From Trichlorobacter lovleyi SZ (GTDB lineage: Bacteria > Desulfobacterota > Desulfuromonadia > Geobacterales > Pseudopelobacteraceae): a stretch of 32,000 bases of DNA. The position numbers were made by a program, and so were the translations under genes. The stretch is taken from NCBI RefSeq assembly GCF_000020385.1, contig NC_010814.1, positions 2,460,001-2,492,000 on the forward strand, read 5' to 3'. The notes beneath the pieces are model-generated. The model was not told the origin of the DNA. It searched no databases and saw nothing but the letters and a program-made list of their open reading frames with translations. This document shows positions 26,794-32,000 of this stretch, in pieces (the first letter of the stretch is position 1; each line of letters starts with the position of its first letter).

Positions 26794-26868
<75 letters not shown>

Positions 26869-26955: not shown

Positions 26956-28437
26956 TTATTTATTGTCGCTGATTGGGGCACCATATCCATCGGCTGCTCC
27001 ACAACTGATGCTTTGCGGCAAGGCAACCAGTGCACACCCTGGTTGCGAAACCTGATCCTGCTGCGGCTTATCATCCCTGATCTCGGTTGCCAGCATACTG
27101 GCGAGGGTTTTGATAACATCAGGCGTCATGCCGCTTGCCGCTGTCAAATCAACCCCCCGTTCCTGCAGATATATCGCCGCAAATGCACGTTTGAACTCCT
27201 CAGGCTCCATAATATCGCGTCCCAGGTGCTCCAGGATCGCCTCGCGTTCCTCCAGCAAGCCTTCCCGGAATTCACCGTAGGTGTCCTCCGTCAACCCCGA
27301 CCGCGATGAATGGCCGACCATGTTTTTCAACCTTGCCGAATCGATCCCCAGCAACACCATCCAACCGACAAAAGTATGCCTCAGACTGTACATATCGCGG
27401 TGCGGCAAGCCAGATGACTTCAGTGCAAGGCCCCAAATTTTCTTTAAAATGGTGCTGTAGTTGAGTGGTGTGGCACCATCATCCATAGTGAACACATACT
27501 CAGTCTTGGACGAATTGACAGCTTGCATGATGCTAACACGCAACCGATCTGTGAGCTTGATTTTCCGGCCACGGAAGATTGTTTTGAGCTTGCTTTTCTC
27601 TTCACCACGTGAAATTGAGCGCTTAATATCAATGTATGCATCATGTATGCAGTCTTTTTTTAATCCTTTAAGCTCAGAGAAAATCATACCCATGCGCATT
27701 GCCTCAAACAATGGACGATAGTGCTCTGGCACATGGACAATAAAATGCTGCCACTCGCTTAGCAACCACACTTCACGCGGCTTGTGCCTGATGTCGCCAT
27801 CATCATCAAACATCGCCTCAATTTTTTTGATTCGGCGGAATGCTGGTGGAAATGGATCAGACAACTGCCACTTGTTGTCAGCATTTGCCTCAGTAAATAT
27901 TCGACGCACCAAGTTCAAAATATTTCGCATGCGTTTGGCAGATAAAAACTTACCGGCGTTTTTCCCACCCTGATGTTTGAGATTACGCACAAACACCTTG
28001 AGGAGCGTTGGCGTCAACTGACCAAAGGTGAGATCGCCGATCATCGGGTAGATTCTTGACCTCAACATTTCAGCGTAGTCCGATTTTGTGGTGGTTGATA
28101 GTGTTTTAGCCTCCTCTTCAAACCACTGTCTACCATATTCTTCGAGCGTAACATCACTGGATTTGATCACCGGCAAGCCAAACAGGCTCCGCTCTATTGA
28201 AGAAAACTTCTCAATGTCAGCCTGTTTGGCAAAAGGAAAATACTCCTTGAAACGGAATGTCTGATCATCAAGTGCAACACCGATCTTGTTGAGAAACAGA
28301 ACCAGATTATGTCTATTTTCTGGTGTATCTTTTTTCCCGCTCGCCAAGCGCACCCGCTCGTTGTAAATCCTGCAGTCGATATACAGCTTGTTTCCAATCT
28401 CCCTGATACTTCCAAATTCTGGATGTTTTGAAACCAT
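26956..28437 (-). CDS. int: Tyrosine-type site-specific integrase (phage integrase family) with N-terminal arm-binding-like domain and a long C-terminal tail
   Basis: 493 aa. The catalytic region contains ...MYSLRHTFVGWMVLLG...MVGHSSRSGLTEDTYGEF (R, H-x-x-R, H and Y signatures). AAGGAG lies upstream of ATG 28437. 106 residues follow the presumed catalytic Tyr. Confidence 0.85.
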   Translation of the reverse strand: MVSKHPEFGSIREIGNKLYIDCRIYNERVRLASGKKDTPENRHNLVLFLNKIGVALDDQTFRFKEYFPFAKQADIEKFSSIERSLFGLPVIKSSDVTLEEYGRQWFEEEAKTLSTTTKSDYAEMLRSRIYPMIGDLTFGQLTPTLLKVFVRNLKHQGGKNAGKFLSAKRMRNILNLVRRIFTEANADNKWQLSDPFPPAFRRIKKIEAMFDDDGDIRHKPREVWLLSEWQHFIVHVPEHYRPLFEAMRMGMIFSELKGLKKDCIHDAYIDIKRSISRGEEKSKLKTIFRGRKIKLTDRLRVSIMQAVNSSKTEYVFTMDDGATPLNYSTILKKIWGLALKSSGLPHRDMYSLRHTFVGWMVLLGIDSARLKNMVGHSSRSGLTEDTYGEFREGLLEEREAILEHLGRDIMEPEEFKRAFAAIYLQERGVDLTAASGMTPDVIKTLASMLATEIRDDKPQQDQVSQPGCALVALPQSISCGAADGYGAPISDNK

Positions 28438-28522: not shown

Positions 28523-28912
28523 TCAGAGGATAAATGCCGGTCTTCTTTTAGTGATCTTTGTTACTGCTGGTTCACGCTTATTTCTGGCAGTTTTTTCTTT
28601 AACCAGAGTGTCCGCCTGAGCCGTTGCTTGCTGCACCAGTTCTTTTGCAGGATTGTGACTCGCAGTAAATTCAAATTCACCTTTTTGATTGATCAACAAA
28701 TCACTAAACAGCCCCATCTGACGCAACTTTTGGTCACGCGCAATCATTTCTCGACATGGCCAATAAAATTTCATTTCGCTGCCATCCCGGATATAATCAA
28801 CACTGTCTATGTATTGTCCGCTTTTTACCCGATTGAATACTGAAGTGCGACCAAGCTTGCGTCGCTCACAGTATTCATCAAGCGTCAATATGTCGGTTGT
28901 GATTAGAGCCAA
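28523..28912 (-). CDS. Excisionase-like / small DNA-binding protein (putative Xis)
   Basis: 129 aa located immediately upstream of int on the same strand. HTH-like segment is LTLDEYCERRKLGRTSVFNRVKSGQY, with a basic C-terminal tail. The tracked start is TTG and no in-frame ATG is nearby, so the start is uncertain. Confidence 0.5.
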   Translation of the reverse strand: MALITTDILTLDEYCERRKLGRTSVFNRVKSGQYIDSVDYIRDGSEMKFYWPCREMIARDQKLRQMGLFSDLLINQKGEFEFTASHNPAKELVQQATAQADTLVKEKTARNKREPAVTKITKRRPAFIL

Positions 28913-29301: not shown

Positions 29302-29610
29302 GTGACGAAACGCGTTGCCTATAACCTTTACCTCTCTTTACCCTTACACCGTCAGATGACCCGACTGACCGAAGCCGGCTTGTCGGCGTCAGCAGTCGCG
29401 CGGTTGGCCGTACAAAAACGGCCTATCATCCTGCCAGATGGCGACGATGCAAGCTGTCCGGTACGCACCACAATTTATGTCGGCAGTGACACTACAGCTG
29501 TACTGACAGAGTTGGCCAGTGCCCATGGCGTGAGCAAAGCAGAGGTGTTACGGCGATTATTAACTGCCTATCTCGATGCAAACCGTGACTGCATTAATGC
29601 TCTTTTTTGA
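29302..29610 (+). CDS. Tandem ribbon-helix-helix (CopG/Arc-like) DNA-binding protein
   Basis: GTG 29302 is preferred because GGAG lies 5 nt upstream. The alternatives TTG 29281 and ATG 29356 lack an SD. There are two RHH-like modules: KRVAYNLYLSLPLHRQMTRLTEAGLSASAVARLAV and RTTIYVGSDTTAVLTELASAHGVSKAEVLRRLLTAYL. Confidence 0.55.
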   Translation: MTKRVAYNLYLSLPLHRQMTRLTEAGLSASAVARLAVQKRPIILPDGDDASCPVRTTIYVGSDTTAVLTELASAHGVSKAEVLRRLLTAYLDANRDCINALF

Positions 29611-29633: not shown

Positions 29634-29656
29634 ATATACATTATTTGATGTATAAT
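29634..29656 (+). promoter_or_regulatory. Consensus -10 (TATAAT) overlapped by a 7-bp-arm palindrome; putative promoter/operator of the three-gene cassette
   Basis: TATAAT lies at 29651-29656. TATACAT (29635-29641), N6, ATGTATA (29648-29654) form a perfect inverted repeat overlapping the -10. No good -35 at 17-nt spacing; TTGCAT lies 20 nt upstream. Confidence 0.45.
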
Positions 29657-29693
29657 ATCTATGGTAGTGATCATTTGTGGTTAAGGAGAACAT

Positions 29694-29891
29694 ATGGTTG
29701 ATTTGGTGGGCAGATATCACGATCTATTCCGGCTAACGGCTGAATACAGCCTACTACCGGCACATTTGCTAGCCGTAGCACACTGGCACGGTCTGGCTAC
29801 CTGCGTTGGTTGTCTAGCTCTTGCAGCCCACGTCATTGCGGCAATTGGTCATAACAAGGGTAAACGTCATCAAGGCGCTGTCGAGGCATAA
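29694..29891 (+). CDS. Small hydrophobic His/Cys-rich protein of unknown function
   Basis: 65 aa with a strong SD (TTAAGGAGAACAT-ATG). The hydrophobic core is LLPAHLLAVAHWHGLATCVGCLALAAHVIAAIG, and the C-terminus is basic. Confidence 0.55.
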   Translation: MVDLVGRYHDLFRLTAEYSLLPAHLLAVAHWHGLATCVGCLALAAHVIAAIGHNKGKRHQGAVEA

Positions 29892-29892
29892 C

Positions 29893-30513
29893 ATGACTGT
29901 ACTGATGAGACAGACACTGGAGAGCAATCGCACTGAATTGGCAGCGCGTTGCAAGGCTGTCAGCAAGGCAGCTACGTCACAGAAAATTTGCCACCTAAAA
30001 ATGGAGATAGTTAACAGCCAAGTCCTGGATATCCCTGTAGCCGGAAGAGTAACGTCATGGCGTCCACTCAGGGTAGTCGTCACTGTTGCGCACAATGAGC
30101 TTGTATTTTGGGAAAGACTGGTCGATTCACACATCGCAAGAAAGGATGAAACAGGCCTGCGCTGGTCTGCTGACCGATTTATCACCCATAACGACTCTTT
30201 AGCCAAAGTCGCGCTCAAAGAGATCATTGACCAGCAACAGCAACGCGCTGCATGCCTCGACAGTGCCATGCTCACTGCCGGATTGGGAGGTCTCATTGTG
30301 TCGCTGGCTTCACCGGCATTTGGGGCAGCCCTGTTAATGATAGCCCTGTTGGTTGGTCAGGCTGGATGGCTGGTGGCCTACAGACTATCACGTCAGATTC
30401 AAGTTCTTATCGAGTGGCTGGATAGCAGTAAAGTAAGCCGAACAGCCCTTATAACTGAACAACCACCTTGGCGCAGAAAAGGAGTGGCAGGTCATGATAC
30501 TTCCCGGACATGA
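29893..30513 (+). CDS. Membrane protein of unknown function (soluble N-terminal domain plus two C-terminal TM helices)
   Basis: Start set at ATG 29893, with GAGG 6 nt upstream, one nt after the previous stop. The tracked ORF begins earlier at 29821, inside the previous gene. The TM region is LTAGLGGLIVSLASPAFGAALLMIALLVGQAGWLVAY. No recognisable family. Confidence 0.55.
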   Translation: MTVLMRQTLESNRTELAARCKAVSKAATSQKICHLKMEIVNSQVLDIPVAGRVTSWRPLRVVVTVAHNELVFWERLVDSHIARKDETGLRWSADRFITHNDSLAKVALKEIIDQQQQRAACLDSAMLTAGLGGLIVSLASPAFGAALLMIALLVGQAGWLVAYRLSRQIQVLIEWLDSSKVSRTALITEQPPWRRKGVAGHDTSRT

Positions 30514-31216
30514 TCACACCTGGATGACGCTCCAGCTCAATTGGCAAGATGCAGCAATCAGGGGTCTTGGGCCTGTGCGGATGGCGCGGGCATCGGTTCG
30601 TCGAGAAAGATTTCCATGGGTCACAAGTACAAGTGTTATCGCGGCAATCCAAGATAATGCAACTACGTCTAAAAAACTTTGGCTCTATGCAAGCTCGAAC
30701 CCTGACCAGGTTGCCAGGCGCTGGCATCGGCCGTTTCTAATCGCACATAAAGGCGGCATGAGCTTGACTACGGCCGAGGAGTTTTTTTCGTGGCCGATGT
30801 GTGAGGCGATCTGGTCGGAGCTACATGATGCAGATGTTACAGACTTGGTAACAATTGTGAGTTGGCCGTATATTACCAAGAGCTGGGTCCAGCATGCATT
30901 GCCAGGATGGGATATGGCAGACAACGGCGCAGGTGAGTTGACGTTTTGGCGCAAGACAACGGCAAATTTAGGCGTAGAAGCGATGGTCGAGGTGACGCCA
31001 TCAGCAATCAACATTTACCTGGGTGACGAGATTTTTGCGCCAAGGCTGATTCCGGGCGATCTGGCGTTTTCGTTGCCGGCCCAATTTCCGAATCTGGATA
31101 TTATGTATCATCTTTTGCCAGAACGGATCACGCACGAGGCCCGGGCTGTCATGCGATGGTACCGCAGTGTGCTTTTCCGTGCGACAATATTAGAGGCGCC
31201 ATCAGTAACAATATGA
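30494..31216 (+). CDS. Trp-rich soluble protein of unknown function
   Basis: 240 aa. GGAG lies 9 nt upstream of the ATG. Overlaps the previous gene by 20 nt. I recognise no motif. Confidence 0.55.
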   Translation: MILPGHDHTWMTLQLNWQDAAIRGLGPVRMARASVRRERFPWVTSTSVIAAIQDNATTSKKLWLYASSNPDQVARRWHRPFLIAHKGGMSLTTAEEFFSWPMCEAIWSELHDADVTDLVTIVSWPYITKSWVQHALPGWDMADNGAGELTFWRKTTANLGVEAMVEVTPSAINIYLGDEIFAPRLIPGDLAFSLPAQFPNLDIMYHLLPERITHEARAVMRWYRSVLFRATILEAPSVTI

Positions 31217-31225
31217 CTAGACGCT

Positions 31226-31261
31226 ATTGTACGCAGTACAATGCAATTGCGCTTTCCTAAC
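31226..31261 (+). repeat. Hairpin-plus-tail unit R1
   Basis: Hairpin is ATTGTAC-GCA-GTACAAT and tail is GCAATTGCGCTTTCCTAAC. Confidence 0.85.
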
Positions 31262-31311
31262 GCTTTTTTGTCTTTATTGAAGTCGGGATCTTAGTTGGTC
31301 ATTTGCTTAGC

Positions 31312-31347
31312 AATGTACGCAGTACATTGTAATTGCGCTTTTCTGAC
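31312..31347 (+). repeat. Hairpin-plus-tail unit R2
   Basis: Hairpin is AATGTAC-GCA-GTACATT and tail is GTAATTGCGCTTTTCTGAC. Confidence 0.9.
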
Positions 31348-31436
31348 TGGTGAAGGCAATTTCGACGAGAAACAGTCAGGCCAGACGTTTTTTTGTCGTC
31401 TGTTTAGGGCGTAGAGCAAGACAAGCGCAGCCGATT

Positions 31437-31472
31437 AATGTACGCAGTACATTGCAATTACGCTTTTCTGAC
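31437..31472 (+). repeat. Hairpin-plus-tail unit R3
   Basis: Hairpin is AATGTAC-GCA-GTACATT and tail is GCAATTACGCTTTTCTGAC. Confidence 0.9.
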
Positions 31473-31536
31473 CGTTTAACGCGGAATCCCAAGTTTTGCA
31501 GTTTTGGCCAGAAAAAAGAGACGATTTATGTCGTAT

Positions 31537-31572
31537 AAGTAACACGGTTACTTGTAATTGCGCATTTCTGAC
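31537..31572 (+). repeat. Hairpin-plus-tail unit R4 (diverged stem sequence, conserved pairing and tail)
   Basis: Hairpin is AAGTAAC-ACG-GTTACTT and tail is GTAATTGCGCATTTCTGAC. Confidence 0.85.
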
Positions 31573-31606: not shown

Positions 31607-31861
31607 TCACAGCAATAACTTTTTGCGCCAGTCGATCTTGTAGGGTTTCTGTTGATCGTCTGGAGATATGATTGTGCTGTTATGCTGACTACTGAGGAAT
31701 AGCTGCAAAGCTTCGTCAATAGGAAGGCTAAAGTCAATCTTAGCACTCAAACGGTCATTTGCATCATGGCTAGCAACAATGGCATCGGGAAATGCACTAC
31801 GAACCTGGTTAACTAGCGCATGGATGGTATTACGTTCACCAGACAATCTGAATTTGATCAT
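31607..31861 (-). CDS. Small protein of unknown function
   Basis: 84 aa from ATG 31861 (GTG at 31864 is the tracked start). AGGAGG lies about 10 nt upstream. Its start abuts the stop of the upstream partial ORF (TAGTGATG). No recognisable family. Confidence 0.5.
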   Translation of the reverse strand: MIKFRLSGERNTIHALVNQVRSAFPDAIVASHDANDRLSAKIDFSLPIDEALQLFLSSQHNSTIISPDDQQKPYKIDWRKKLLL

Positions 31862-31863
31862 CA

Positions 31864-32000
31864 CTATGCTGCCTCCTGTTCAGTCGACAATGTTTTAGGT
31901 GTGCGACGACCTTTACATGATCTGACAGTGTTTAGGGGCGTATCAGCAACAGACATGCCGTCGATCGATGCACCGTTTATCGATGCTTCTGACGGTTGCT
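31864..32000 (-). CDS. 3' end of an ORF continuing beyond the window (unknown function)
   Basis: Manual translation of the minus strand gives an open frame from 32000 to TAG at 31864-31866: ...QPSEASINGASIDGMSVADTPLNTVRSCKGRRTPKTLSTEQEAA*. It is translationally coupled to the next gene and is absent from the ORF track because it has no start in the window. Confidence 0.4.
   Translation of the reverse strand, partial: QPSEASINGASIDGMSVADTPLNTVRSCKGRRTPKTLSTEQEAA

Follow-up and report, generated by a model that had tools for sequence, protein, structure and literature searches.

Organisation of the island locus

The window analysed here is a 32,000-nt stretch of the Trichlorobacter lovleyi SZ genome, and the features considered below are, in window coordinates:

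26794..26868, + strand: tRNA-Gly(CCC), the island integration site on the attL side (ARAGORN)
26956..28437, − strand: tyrosine integrase with arm-binding domain, 493 aa (Pfam Arm-DNA-bind_2 and Phage_integrase; phrog_1, E = 1e-32)
28523..28912, − strand: 129-aa protein in excisionase position (weak Cox-like match, phrog_575, E = 0.15)
29302..29610, + strand: tandem RHH protein, 102 aa, likely module repressor (Pfam RHH_1, hhalign)
29635..29656, + strand: promoter and candidate operator; palindrome TATACATTATTTGATGTATA at 29635-29654 overlapping the −10 TATAAT at 29651-29656
29683..29688, + strand: Shine-Dalgarno AAGGAG of ORF1, 5 nt 5' of the ATG (read from sequence)
29694..29891, + strand: ORF1, 65 aa, small membrane protein (ATG 29694, TAA 29889-29891; sequence, dN/dS 0.10, profile)
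29893..30513, + strand: ORF2, 206 aa, hairpin membrane protein (ATG 29893, 1 nt past the ORF1 stop)
30494..31216, + strand: ORF3, 240 aa, Trp-rich soluble alpha/beta protein of an orphan family (ATG 30494; AF2 model)
31226..31572, + strand: array of four composite units (31226-31261, 31312-31347, 31437-31472 and 31537-31572)
31607..31864, − strand: 85-aa ORF, a variable neighbour, first of a convergent pair whose partner, a 269-aa coiled-coil protein, lies past the window end

Immediately right of tRNA-Gly(CCC) the GC content drops from about 0.57 to 0.44-0.52, and a related island (L024, Geobacter sp. UBA4074) occupies the same tRNA. The attR of the island was not found in the 13.6 kb searched. 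From its position, the 129-aa protein is taken to be a probable excisionase. An earlier note on this DNA had placed a cassette of three tightly packed, translationally coupled + strand genes between int/xis/RHH genes and a hairpin array; re-reading the coordinates and junctions confirms both the placement and the layout, with a gap of 1 nt between ORF1 and ORF2 and an overlap of 20 nt between ORF2 and ORF3. The −10 and strong Shine-Dalgarno sequence that it reported before ORF1 are the TATAAT and AAGGAG listed above. The RGGAG form of the latter is kept in all loci aligned; GAGG lies 5' of ORF2, and AGGAG 5' of ORF3. The RHH gene had been started at TTG 29281 (109 aa), but GTG 29302 (102 aa) is the most likely start; the Pfam RHH_1 match (E = 3e-7) covers residues 62-99 counted from the TTG, equal to residues 55-92 from the GTG.

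The cassette genes are under selection

A relative, locus L001, shares 65-75% identity in ORF1 and ORF3, and dN/dS against it is 0.10 for ORF1, for ORF3 and for the RHH gene. ORF2 is only 33% identical between the two, with pN (0.46) below pS (0.79). ORF1-ORF2-ORF3 stand in the same order in L001, L011, L012, L015, L019, L023/L055, L024 and L050, and the order RHH-ORF1-ORF2-ORF3 is constant over about nine divergent loci, in which ORF3 identity falls to about 20%. A profile search with ORF1 found a copy in every newly recovered locus. The ORF2/ORF3 overlap (4-26 nt) is present in every locus where both genes are intact and adjacent, namely the window, L001, L012, L015, L019 and L024. Given the dN/dS of about 0.1 and this recurrence in unchanged order, ORF1-3 are genuine genes under selection rather than chance ORFs.

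A candidate operator covers the ORF1 promoter

The RHH protein is a tandem, its N-half aligning with its C-half (hhalign probability 86.6%, E = 4.5e-6). It is 39-65% identical across six loci and showed no significant similarity to characterised RHH proteins beyond the generic RHH_1 domain. About 85 nt separate its gene from ORF1, and this spacer, alignable across the six loci, holds a separate conserved promoter. Over the −10 lies a 20-bp palindrome, TATACA-N8-TGTATA, that the earlier note had missed. The palindrome is unique in the window and present in one copy per related locus, except in L019, which has a second copy upstream of the RHH gene. The operator/promoter DNA is conserved even where the proteins have diverged to 40% identity or less. 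Scanning public genomes and metagenomes with the operator pattern returned five true loci with the module and 32 chance matches without any; all four genes are present in four of the five, and L041 ends after ORF1. A promoter scan called no −10/−35 pair at ORF1 and found no good −35 at 16-18 nt; the promoter assignment is based instead on TATAAT, which is conserved across loci. Most plausibly, the RHH protein acts on the palindromic operator.

A promoter that is probably repressed would also suit an addiction module, in which ORF1 and ORF2 would be membrane toxins, the RHH protein a labile repressor or antitoxin, and loss of the island would kill the cell. The RHH protein weakly matches RelB/VapB-type antitoxin models (E = 0.004-0.05, far under cut-offs), and the module is usually found beside an integrase, where island toxin-antitoxin modules often sit. 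We nevertheless regard this as improbable: the RHH gene and ORF1 are uncoupled by their spacer and separate promoter, unlike type II toxin-antitoxin pairs, no toxin family was detected, and three conserved downstream genes with a cis array exceed the needs of an addiction module. A type II toxin-antitoxin system proper was rejected on the uncoupled RHH gene, the sub-threshold antitoxin matches and the lack of a toxin family.

Two membrane proteins and an orphan soluble protein

ORF1 has an N-terminal amphipathic helix, the motif LLPxHLLxxxH and a single predicted TM segment, its sole hydrophobic stretch (about residues 32-54). Its description as His/Cys-rich and hydrophobic holds for composition (7 His, 2 Cys) but not for conservation, which extends to His24, His30, His53 and in part His9, while the Cys residues are not conserved. 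For ORF2, the soluble N-domain and two TM helices proposed earlier are borne out: a basic N-domain (pI 9.7), predicted to be cytoplasmic, precedes a TM hairpin (about residues 122-163) whose turn bears a conserved Pro, and the tail is amphipathic and very basic (pI 11.3). The TM segment gave the sole weak match for the three proteins, to the PHROG holin family phrog_785 (E = 0.006).

ORF3 is Trp-rich, as noted before (12 Trp in 240 residues), and mildly acidic (pI 6.2). Its family is defined by a length of about 230-240 aa, invariant R39, W100 and P101, near-invariant W17, E96, A105, W139, E166 and R221, and a gene directly 3' of one for an ORF2-like hairpin membrane protein; the window ORF3 falls within this definition. 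The family alignment has no conserved His or His cluster, and the best-conserved Tyr, Y175, is His in one member and so is not invariant. With 17 clusters among 1.84 billion representative proteins, the family is so far limited to one bacterial lineage, and comparative power is low because only about 17 ORF3 protein clusters exist. The AF2 model reached a pLDDT of 88.9 and a pTM of 0.83; a model from a 3-sequence alignment (pLDDT 36) was discarded. Foldseek searches of PDB and BFVD with the model returned no match with E < 0.001, and all TM-scores were below 0.25, for which reason the top entries (di-domain ARO/CYC, TBP-like and MRP1/2) were not used. No internal duplication was detected in ORF3 when looked for.

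The earlier note had recognised no family or catalytic motif in the three proteins and had proposed HMM and structure searches. These were run and agree with it: Pfam, NCBIfam, PHROGs and PADLOC gave no usable match for ORF1-3, homologues included, and ORF3 found no fold relative. PADLOC-DB v2 had no match at E ≤ 1 for ORF1, ORF2, ORF3, the RHH protein or the window neighbours, and PDB sequence profiles gave nothing for ORF3, ORF2 or RHH. By tblastn, ORF3 had no match in phages or plasmids, nor RHH or ORF2 in plasmids; an alignment search of genome and viral collections with ORF3 returned pattern matches only and no relatives. The phage, plasmid and IMG/VR collections contain no member of the family.

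No HUH relaxase was matched in the module by Pfam or NCBIfam, and no relaxase, replication initiator, NTPase or coupling protein was recognisable in the module or its neighbours. The Walker motif GxxxxGK[ST], read directly from the sequences, does not occur in ORF1-3, which also matched no NTPase family. A partition system with an RHH centromere-binding protein was rejected for want of a Walker or actin-like NTPase partner. A phage holin/lysis cassette was likewise set aside, its only trace being the phrog_785 match, and ORF3 having no lysozyme-like or amidase-like fold or family.

Composite DNA sites follow ORF3

Each unit of the window array consists of a 7-bp inverted repeat with a 3-nt centre, followed by G(T/C)AATT(G/A)CGC, an A/T-rich 4-mer and CTGAC (CTAAC in unit 1). 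Across loci the unit reads as a 7-bp inverted repeat, then GTAA(G/T)TGCGC, then GTGAC. Arrays hold 1-4 units and begin 10-30 nt past the ORF3 stop. Of the related loci examined, all but two show this unit geometry 3' of ORF3 and on its strand; the exceptions are L050, with a single hairpin but no clear unit, and L055, whose ORF3 is interrupted. The composite motif gave 19 matches at the post-ORF3 position, one elsewhere in the 32-kb window and three in 427 kb of unrelated DNA; blastn of the array against plasmids gave none. The period in the window is irregular (86, 125 and 100 nt), and a comparison with L001 shows partial conservation of the spacers.

The palindrome arms covary, with 93.7% paired, five of seven pairs compensatory and none of 500 shuffles scoring as high. 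The unpaired stem cells are T.T, C.A and A.A rather than G.U, and the asymmetric arm pair AAGTAAC/GTTTCTT is kept in two very distant loci. These mismatches and conserved asymmetric arms point to sequence-specific recognition of the site as dsDNA or as hairpin DNA.

An alternative is that transcription of the operon runs on into the array, which would form a structured 3' extension of the transcript, with ORF3 as an RNA-binding or RNA-processing protein in a type III toxin-antitoxin-like or RNA-stabilising role. The strong stem covariation would fit this, as would the lack of a convincing terminator between ORF3 and the array and the place of the first hairpin, in all loci on the coding strand and 10-30 nt past the end of ORF3. 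The reading seems quite improbable, however, in view of the non-G.U mismatches and the arm pair shared by two distant loci, a fold z-score of only about −2.5, an Rfam search of the region without a match, and, in contrast to type III antitoxin repeats, units that recur every 86-125 nt with spacers conserved in part. A type III toxin-antitoxin system is expected to carry head-to-tail, identical repeats of about 35 nt upstream of the toxin gene, and was rejected on the array's position downstream of the genes, its period, its non-repeat spacers and the absence of an Rfam match. Other classes of repeat were excluded in the same way: a CRISPR array by the irregular period, the partly conserved spacers and the fact that no cas genes were seen in any locus; an integron attC, a dif/Xer site and a resolvase res site by geometry; intrinsic terminators by the polarity of the A/T run, which is not fixed between loci; and host REP elements by the absence of the motif from the remaining window.

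A constant module among variable neighbours

The earlier note had regarded the cassette as island cargo. This is not supported, since the cassette is invariant while the integrase type and the nearby defence genes vary; it is part of a constant unit with the RHH gene, the operator, the array and, usually, an adjoining recombinase. The order within the module is the RHH gene, the operator-covered promoter, ORF1, ORF2 coupled to ORF3, and the array. The true variable cargo across loci comprises type I R-M (HsdR/M/S), DpdE (E = 1e-187), DruE-like helicases, an IetA-like ATPase and SoFic. The genes downstream of the module differ too: the 85-aa/269-aa pair is conserved only in L018 (47% and 70% identity), and elsewhere unrelated genes take its place. 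In L015 and L016 the insertion lies within a comM-like gene. The contigs of L001, L015 and L016 (about 6 kb) have no terminal overlap, and the circularity check on them was negative.

Three different recombinase sets occur among the loci, and a recombinase adjoins the module in six or seven of the nine, not in all. The module of L001, L012 and L015 lies beside a tyrosine recombinase and a large Zn-ribbon/recombinase-like protein, with a small HTH protein added to the set in L012 and L015, whereas the window integrase is context outside the conserved module. In L019, L023 and L055 a small tyrosine recombinase sits inside the operon, between ORF1 and ORF2. The latter arrangement and the recombinase directly beside the module in most loci would be in keeping with a regulatory accessory to the neighbouring recombinases: a sensor linked to the membrane, through which excision or recombination of the island would be controlled. 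We consider this very improbable; the associated recombinases are of unrelated types, making a specific partner unlikely, and the array would be left unexplained.

The island setting is equally compatible with a role in defence, as the islands that hold the loci all carry defence genes. The idea, raised as pure inference in the earlier note, would be anti-phage or anti-plasmid defence or superinfection exclusion, with ORF3 as sensor, ORF2 and ORF1 as a membrane-damaging or membrane-blocking effector, the RHH protein as repressor and the array as nucleic-acid cofactor or decoy. Defence systems often pair a small two-TM effector with a soluble protein. The company of such genes (type I R-M, DpdE/DruE-like, IetA-like or SoFic, depending on the locus), the apparently tight operator control of the promoter and the weak holin-like match on the ORF2 TM hairpin (phrog_785) would all be consistent with it. 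Yet none of the three proteins has a PADLOC match, and the cassette does not vary between islands as a hotspot gene would, usually adjoins a recombinase directly and is tied to a conserved multi-site DNA array; to our knowledge, no described membrane-effector defence system has such an array. The family is also extremely rare and has no member in the phage, plasmid or IMG/VR collections. On balance we hold a defence function to be unlikely.

It is possible, though short of probable, that the cassette makes up the protein-coding core of a backbone module, conserved and self-contained, in a small family of Geobacter-type integrative islands.

A possible role in handling island DNA

Our best guess, offered tentatively, is that the cassette is a repressed, membrane-anchored module that handles island DNA for mobilisation or maintenance; the membrane complex, its DNA binding and its part in transfer or maintenance are what we infer. 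The ORF1-3 promoter would be held shut by the RHH protein. Upon its release, ORF1, ORF2 and ORF3 would assemble at the inner membrane, and the complex would engage the adjacent array on the island DNA and process, tether or hand over the excised island. The most likely purpose would be mobilisation through a helper conjugation system, the alternative being replication or segregation of the excised circle. The strongly basic parts of ORF2 that are predicted to be cytoplasmic count for DNA handling, and the mildly acidic pI of ORF3 counts against it.

That the complex may handle the excised island is suggested by the resemblance of the array units to MOBQ-type oriT nick regions. We know of no arrangement with multiple oriTs in tandem. 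The MOBQ oriT core consensus is TAAGTGCGCC, followed by CT after the nick, and the full consensus is NWACCNNTAAGTGCGCCCTYNN (PMC3832669). The unit spacer GTAA(G/T)TGCGC agrees with the core at 8 of 10 positions and lies in the same place beside the inverted repeat, a likeness noticed post hoc. The array units are without the CC|CT nick dinucleotides and have an A/T run instead.

A more specific version would make ORF1-3 a novel membrane-bound DNA-processing machine, in which ORF3 or a partner recombinase recognises, nicks or tethers the oriT-like array, giving a relaxase-independent route of transfer or segregation. We give this version little credence.

Should the module indeed handle island DNA, mobilisation or maintenance would here be carried out by an apparatus of proteins without known relatives, and the module would also show how small islands bearing restriction and other defence genes move between Geobacter-type bacteria of use in bioremediation. 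The general impact hinges on the mechanism being new, and the family is very rare. Whatever the function, ORF3 is confidently modelled yet unmatched in PDB or BFVD, and the operator and array offer concrete, cheap experimental handles.

Comparison with known systems

Relaxosome accessory proteins of the F TraY kind carry two RHH repeats in one polypeptide. With TraY and other RHH relaxosome/operator proteins the module shares this tandem at the head of an operon in which small membrane proteins come first; its own RHH protein is similar only through the generic RHH_1 domain and most plausibly acts on the operator. MobB of R1162 is a membrane-associated accessory protein, to which the membrane proteins of the module may be likened. 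The MOBQ regions (RSF1010/R1162 mobA-mobB-mobC with oriT) also have an RHH-type accessory protein. In cis they carry an inverted repeat immediately before a TAAGTGCGC-like core (PMC3832669), for which GTAA(G/T)TGCGC of the array units is the candidate counterpart. Unlike them, the module has no HUH relaxase, ORF3 has neither a conserved His triad nor an invariant Tyr, and the units come 1-4 in tandem, each with an extra GTGAC box and with CC|CT not conserved.

Partition cassettes (ParR/ParG with repeat arrays) likewise combine an RHH protein with adjacent repeated DNA sites, but the module has no NTPase and its array lies downstream of three unrelated genes, with composite units about 100 bp apart. 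Lambda RexA/RexB resemble the cassette as a soluble and a small membrane protein paired within an integrated element's control region, beside a repressor, yet they show no sequence or fold similarity to it (no PDB match) and have no DNA array. None of ORF1-3 is like Srap, GinD or TnpC of the multi-recombinase elements SEs, GInts and Tn554, and the window island differs from these in its lambda-type integrase and Xis-like gene at tRNA-Gly, whereas in L001, L012 and L015 recombinase sets similar to theirs stand beside the module, as context only (PMC10214605, PMC5385486).

Conservation of the three ORFs and their operator

The cassette follows a ribbon-helix-helix (RHH) gene on the same strand, and the coordinates of its three ORFs, with the 1-nt gap and the 20-nt overlap, are exactly those claimed in the earlier note. 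Within the gene that precedes it, ORF2 as well as ORF3 has a GAGG or AGGAG of its own.

Features of the RHH gene, operator and cassette
29302–29610, +: tandem RHH gene, likely start GTG 29302 (102 aa), not TTG 29281
29635–29654: operator palindrome TATACATTATTTGATGTATA, 20 bp, overlapping the −10 TATAAT of ORF1 (to 29656), conserved in all related loci
29651–29656, +: TATAAT (−10) of ORF1
29683–29688, +: AAGGAG 5' of ORF1
29694–29891, +: ORF1, 65 aa
29893–30513, +: ORF2, 206 aa, ATG 1 nt past the ORF1 stop
30494–31216, +: ORF3, 240 aa, 20-nt overlap with ORF2

L001, a metagenomic contig, carries a divergent copy of the region with RHH, ORF1, ORF2 and ORF3 in the same order (66%, 65%, 33% and 75% identity, respectively), its junctions being ATGA overlaps instead of the gap and overlap of the window. 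Nei–Gojobori estimates for this pair gave a dN/dS of 0.10 for RHH, ORF1 and ORF3; synonymous sites of ORF2 are saturated, yet its pN (0.46) is lower than its pS (0.79). Even ORF1, which at first sight convinces least, was recovered by BLAST or profile in every related locus. The gene order was kept among these loci. ORF1–3 are real genes, and selection together with synteny rules out spurious ORFs.

The RHH protein contains two RHH repeats in a single chain, the second matching Pfam RHH_1 and the first aligning with the second (hhalign, probability 86.6%). Its gene accompanies the cassette in all loci with enough flank, at 39–65% identity. All loci share DNA-level conservation of the ~85-nt spacer between RHH and ORF1, in the order T-run, palindrome TATACA-N8-TGTATA overlapping TATAAT, RGGAG and ATG. 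The palindrome occurs once in the window and once per related locus, except for L019, which has two, the extra copy lying just upstream of the RHH gene. A scan of public collections with operator+SD+ATG as the pattern gave 37 genomic and metagenomic loci. Profile searches identified the module in five of them, two from Geobacter MAGs and three on metagenome contigs. All four genes are present in four of these five; the fifth, L041, is truncated past ORF1 and carries RHH and ORF1. None of the four genes is found at the remaining 32 loci, mostly Firmicutes, which are chance matches, as is one viral-contig match. The DNA pattern of the operator palindrome is by itself sufficiently specific to pull the module out of public genomes. 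An addiction module, as another reading of this operon, is quite improbable, as the RHH gene is uncoupled and the parts are in excess.

ORF1–3 encode orphan proteins

Hydropathy scans predicted one transmembrane segment in ORF1 and, in line with the two helices proposed earlier, a transmembrane hairpin at about residues 122–163 of ORF2; the turn of this hairpin contains a conserved Pro, a basic N-domain (pI 9.7) precedes it and a very basic tail (pI 11.3) comes after it. ORF3, with 12 Trp and a pI of 6.2, has no hydrophobic segment, which agrees with its description as Trp-rich and soluble. ORF1, described earlier as His/Cys-rich, has some of its His in the conserved core R-x-H...W-x-A-E-Y-S-L-L-P-x-H-L-L...H that precedes the transmembrane segment; its two Cys are not conserved.

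No significant match was found in Pfam, NCBIfam, PHROGs or PADLOC for the three proteins, their homologues likewise lack a significant family match, and PDB sequence-profile searches were empty; the earlier note, too, had recognised no family. In an indexed search of 5.8 billion proteins, ORF2 had zero relatives and ORF3 only two. Searching 1.84 billion cluster representatives exhaustively with an ORF3 profile gave 18 matches, one being a repeat artefact; the remaining 17 are mostly full-length (214–240 aa), with one 173-aa fragment. In the alignment, R39, W100 and P101 are invariant and W17, L62, E96, A105, W139, E166 and R221 nearly so, with no conserved His, Cys, Lys or Asp suggestive of a nuclease or HUH enzyme. 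AlphaFold2, given an 18-sequence alignment, produced a confident ORF3 model (pLDDT 88.9, pTM 0.83), predicting two beta-sheet/helix lobes with a long C-terminal helix at the end. Foldseek searches of PDB and BFVD with this model returned nothing at E < 0.001, with all TM-scores below 0.25, so the model has no structural relative in PDB or BFVD. Judged by sequence, ORF1, ORF2 and ORF3 are all orphans. The ORF3 family is very rare and confined to one lineage, and its general impact is limited accordingly.

A conserved array of composite sites follows ORF3

Four composite units lie 3' of ORF3.

31226–31572, +: array of four composite units, starting at 31226, 31312, 31437 and 31537

Each window unit has a 7-bp inverted repeat followed by GTAATTGCGC, an A/T 4-mer and CTGAC, in fixed geometry. 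Where the end of ORF3 is intact, nearly all loci have 350–500 nt of non-coding DNA at this position, with repeats ~100 nt apart; the array is kept in all related loci but one, L050, which has a single hairpin and no unit. Across loci, the units align almost gap-free as a 7-bp inverted repeat whose arms are separated by a 3-nt centre (AAnnnAC NNN GTnnnTT), the 10-nt consensus GTAA(G/T)TGCGC, an A/T-rich 4-mer and GTGAC. Downstream of ORF3, the coding strand has 19 copies of the composite motif, compared with one in the rest of the window and three in 427 kb of unrelated DNA. The array is tied to RHH, operator and ORF1–3 through deep divergence. As an excision sensor, a reading that leaves the array unexplained, the module is very unlikely.

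The arms covary, with 93.7% of cells paired, compensatory changes in five of the seven pairs and none of 500 shuffles as high. They are also conserved in sequence: the last unit is AAGTAAC...GTTACTT in five loci, and the asymmetric pair AAGTAAC/GTTTCTT recurs in two very distant ones. An RNA-based arrangement would fit the position of the array right past the ORF3 stop codon, but the mismatch pattern and the sequence-specific asymmetry of the arms make it highly improbable. None of the mismatches is a G.U, a pattern that favours a DNA site, as duplex or extruded hairpin, over RNA. A third motif, (A/T)ATCCCAAC, read from the sequences, recurs in inter-unit spacers of several loci (window 31440–31500, L018 950–990, L015 5825–5840, L024 2940–2990), and in the first spacer of the window (~31282–31300) as reverse complement.

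Resemblance to MOBQ-type transfer origins

The module combines a repressor-type gene, an operator over the −10 and three proteins with coupled translation, of which two are anchored in the membrane and have basic cytoplasmic portions. Together with the cis array, this suggests an operon that would normally be shut and whose products may assemble at the membrane and act on the array as a complex. Relaxosomes classically include tandem RHH proteins and small accessory proteins of the membrane (F TraY, R1162 MobB/MobC). MOBQ-type transfer origins have an inverted repeat directly before the nick core, with the consensus NWACCNNTAAGTGCGCCCTYNN (PMC3832669). The layout of the units, an inverted repeat and then GTAA(G/T)TGCGC, resembles this, with an 8/10 match that was spotted after the fact; the 10-mer of the window's unit resembles the nick core TAAGTGCGCC, whereas the MOBQ nick dinucleotides are not conserved. 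G. lovleyi SZ also has an F-type tra cluster (PMC3403914).

Given the MOBQ-like layout and the relaxosome-type proteins, we tentatively rank first, as a possibility, that this repressed, membrane-anchored module handles island DNA for mobilisation or maintenance. Against it, no relaxase, initiator or NTPase is recognisable, and ORF3 has no invariant Tyr or His. We found no published description of the architecture of tandem RHH, operator, three-protein membrane set and tandem oriT-like sites. A genuinely new DNA-processing machine is rather improbable; most plausibly, the function is of a known kind, that of the backbone DNA-handling modules of integrative elements.

The module is constant while its surroundings vary

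The region is part of an island at tRNA-Gly(CCC) (26794–26868), where GC drops from ~0.57 to 0.44–0.52. NrdJ, encoded adjacent to it, groups with proteins of Trichlorobacter and Geobacter. The window and L024, both at tRNA-Gly, have a 493-aa arm-type integrase and a Xis-like gene. L001, L012 and L015 have a ~390–430-aa tyrosine recombinase and a ~590-aa Zn-ribbon/recombinase-like protein (572 aa beside the L015/L016 junction); in L012 and L015, a small HTH protein separates the two. This set is reminiscent of, but not identical to, the SE, GInt and Tn554 multi-recombinase elements (PMC10214605), so far reported from Gamma-/Betaproteobacteria, staphylococci and enterococci. In L015 and L016, the insertion is into a comM-like gene. 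One branch of the family (L019, L023, L055) has a small tyrosine recombinase (222–226 aa, catalytic domain only) inside the operon, between ORF1 and ORF2. L050 and the window's island, which continues in L002, have a serine resolvase downstream. Genes past the array are unrelated between loci, except for a pair shared by the window and L018 (47% identity for the 85-aa and 70% for the 269-aa protein) and absent from the other loci.

Variable neighbours of the module
L015 1–120, L016 1–80: left island junction, comM/Mg-chelatase-like gene broken at ...GLLFLDELP, recombinase set adjoining
L019 1560–2240, L055 4326–4994, L023: in-operon tyrosine recombinase
31607–31864 (−) and beyond the window end (L002 4768–5834): convergent pair, 85-aa protein and 269-aa Ala/Glu-rich coiled-coil protein
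L002 6380–13031: serine resolvase, Metallophos, HD_4, AAA+ protein (PADLOC IetA, E = 1e-29), two TPR proteins

Defence genes differ likewise: type I R-M in L012/13, L018 and L050, SoFic in L050, DpdE (E = 1e-187) with a DruE/DpdJ-like helicase in L011, and, in the window's island, an IetA-like AAA protein together with TPR, Metallophos and HD proteins, these L002 genes perhaps forming a defence system related to Ietas. With the surroundings variable and the module fixed, it is the cassette that stays constant in these islands and the defence genes that make up the cargo, the reverse of the cargo role first proposed for the cassette. A defence or exclusion function of the cassette would fit these companions and the membrane-hairpin protein; it is nevertheless unlikely, as it has no PADLOC support and explains neither the array nor the constancy of the module.

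Several loci show further rearrangements. In L055 (1967–3889), the ORF3 homologue is broken at about residue 175 and runs in frame into a large serine recombinase, which looks like the insertion of another mobile element. L050 (8335–9668) has two tandem ORF3-like genes of 225 and 219 aa (hhalign probability 64% and 97%), followed, with the single hairpin, by the resolvase and a complete type I R-M system. The 269-aa coiled-coil protein has a faint KfrA_N-like N-terminus (E = 0.9). In L005 (GCA_047291845.1, 256–1629), a second integrase (457 aa, Arm-DNA-bind_3) lies on the far side of the same tRNA-Gly, which suggests tandem islands at this site.
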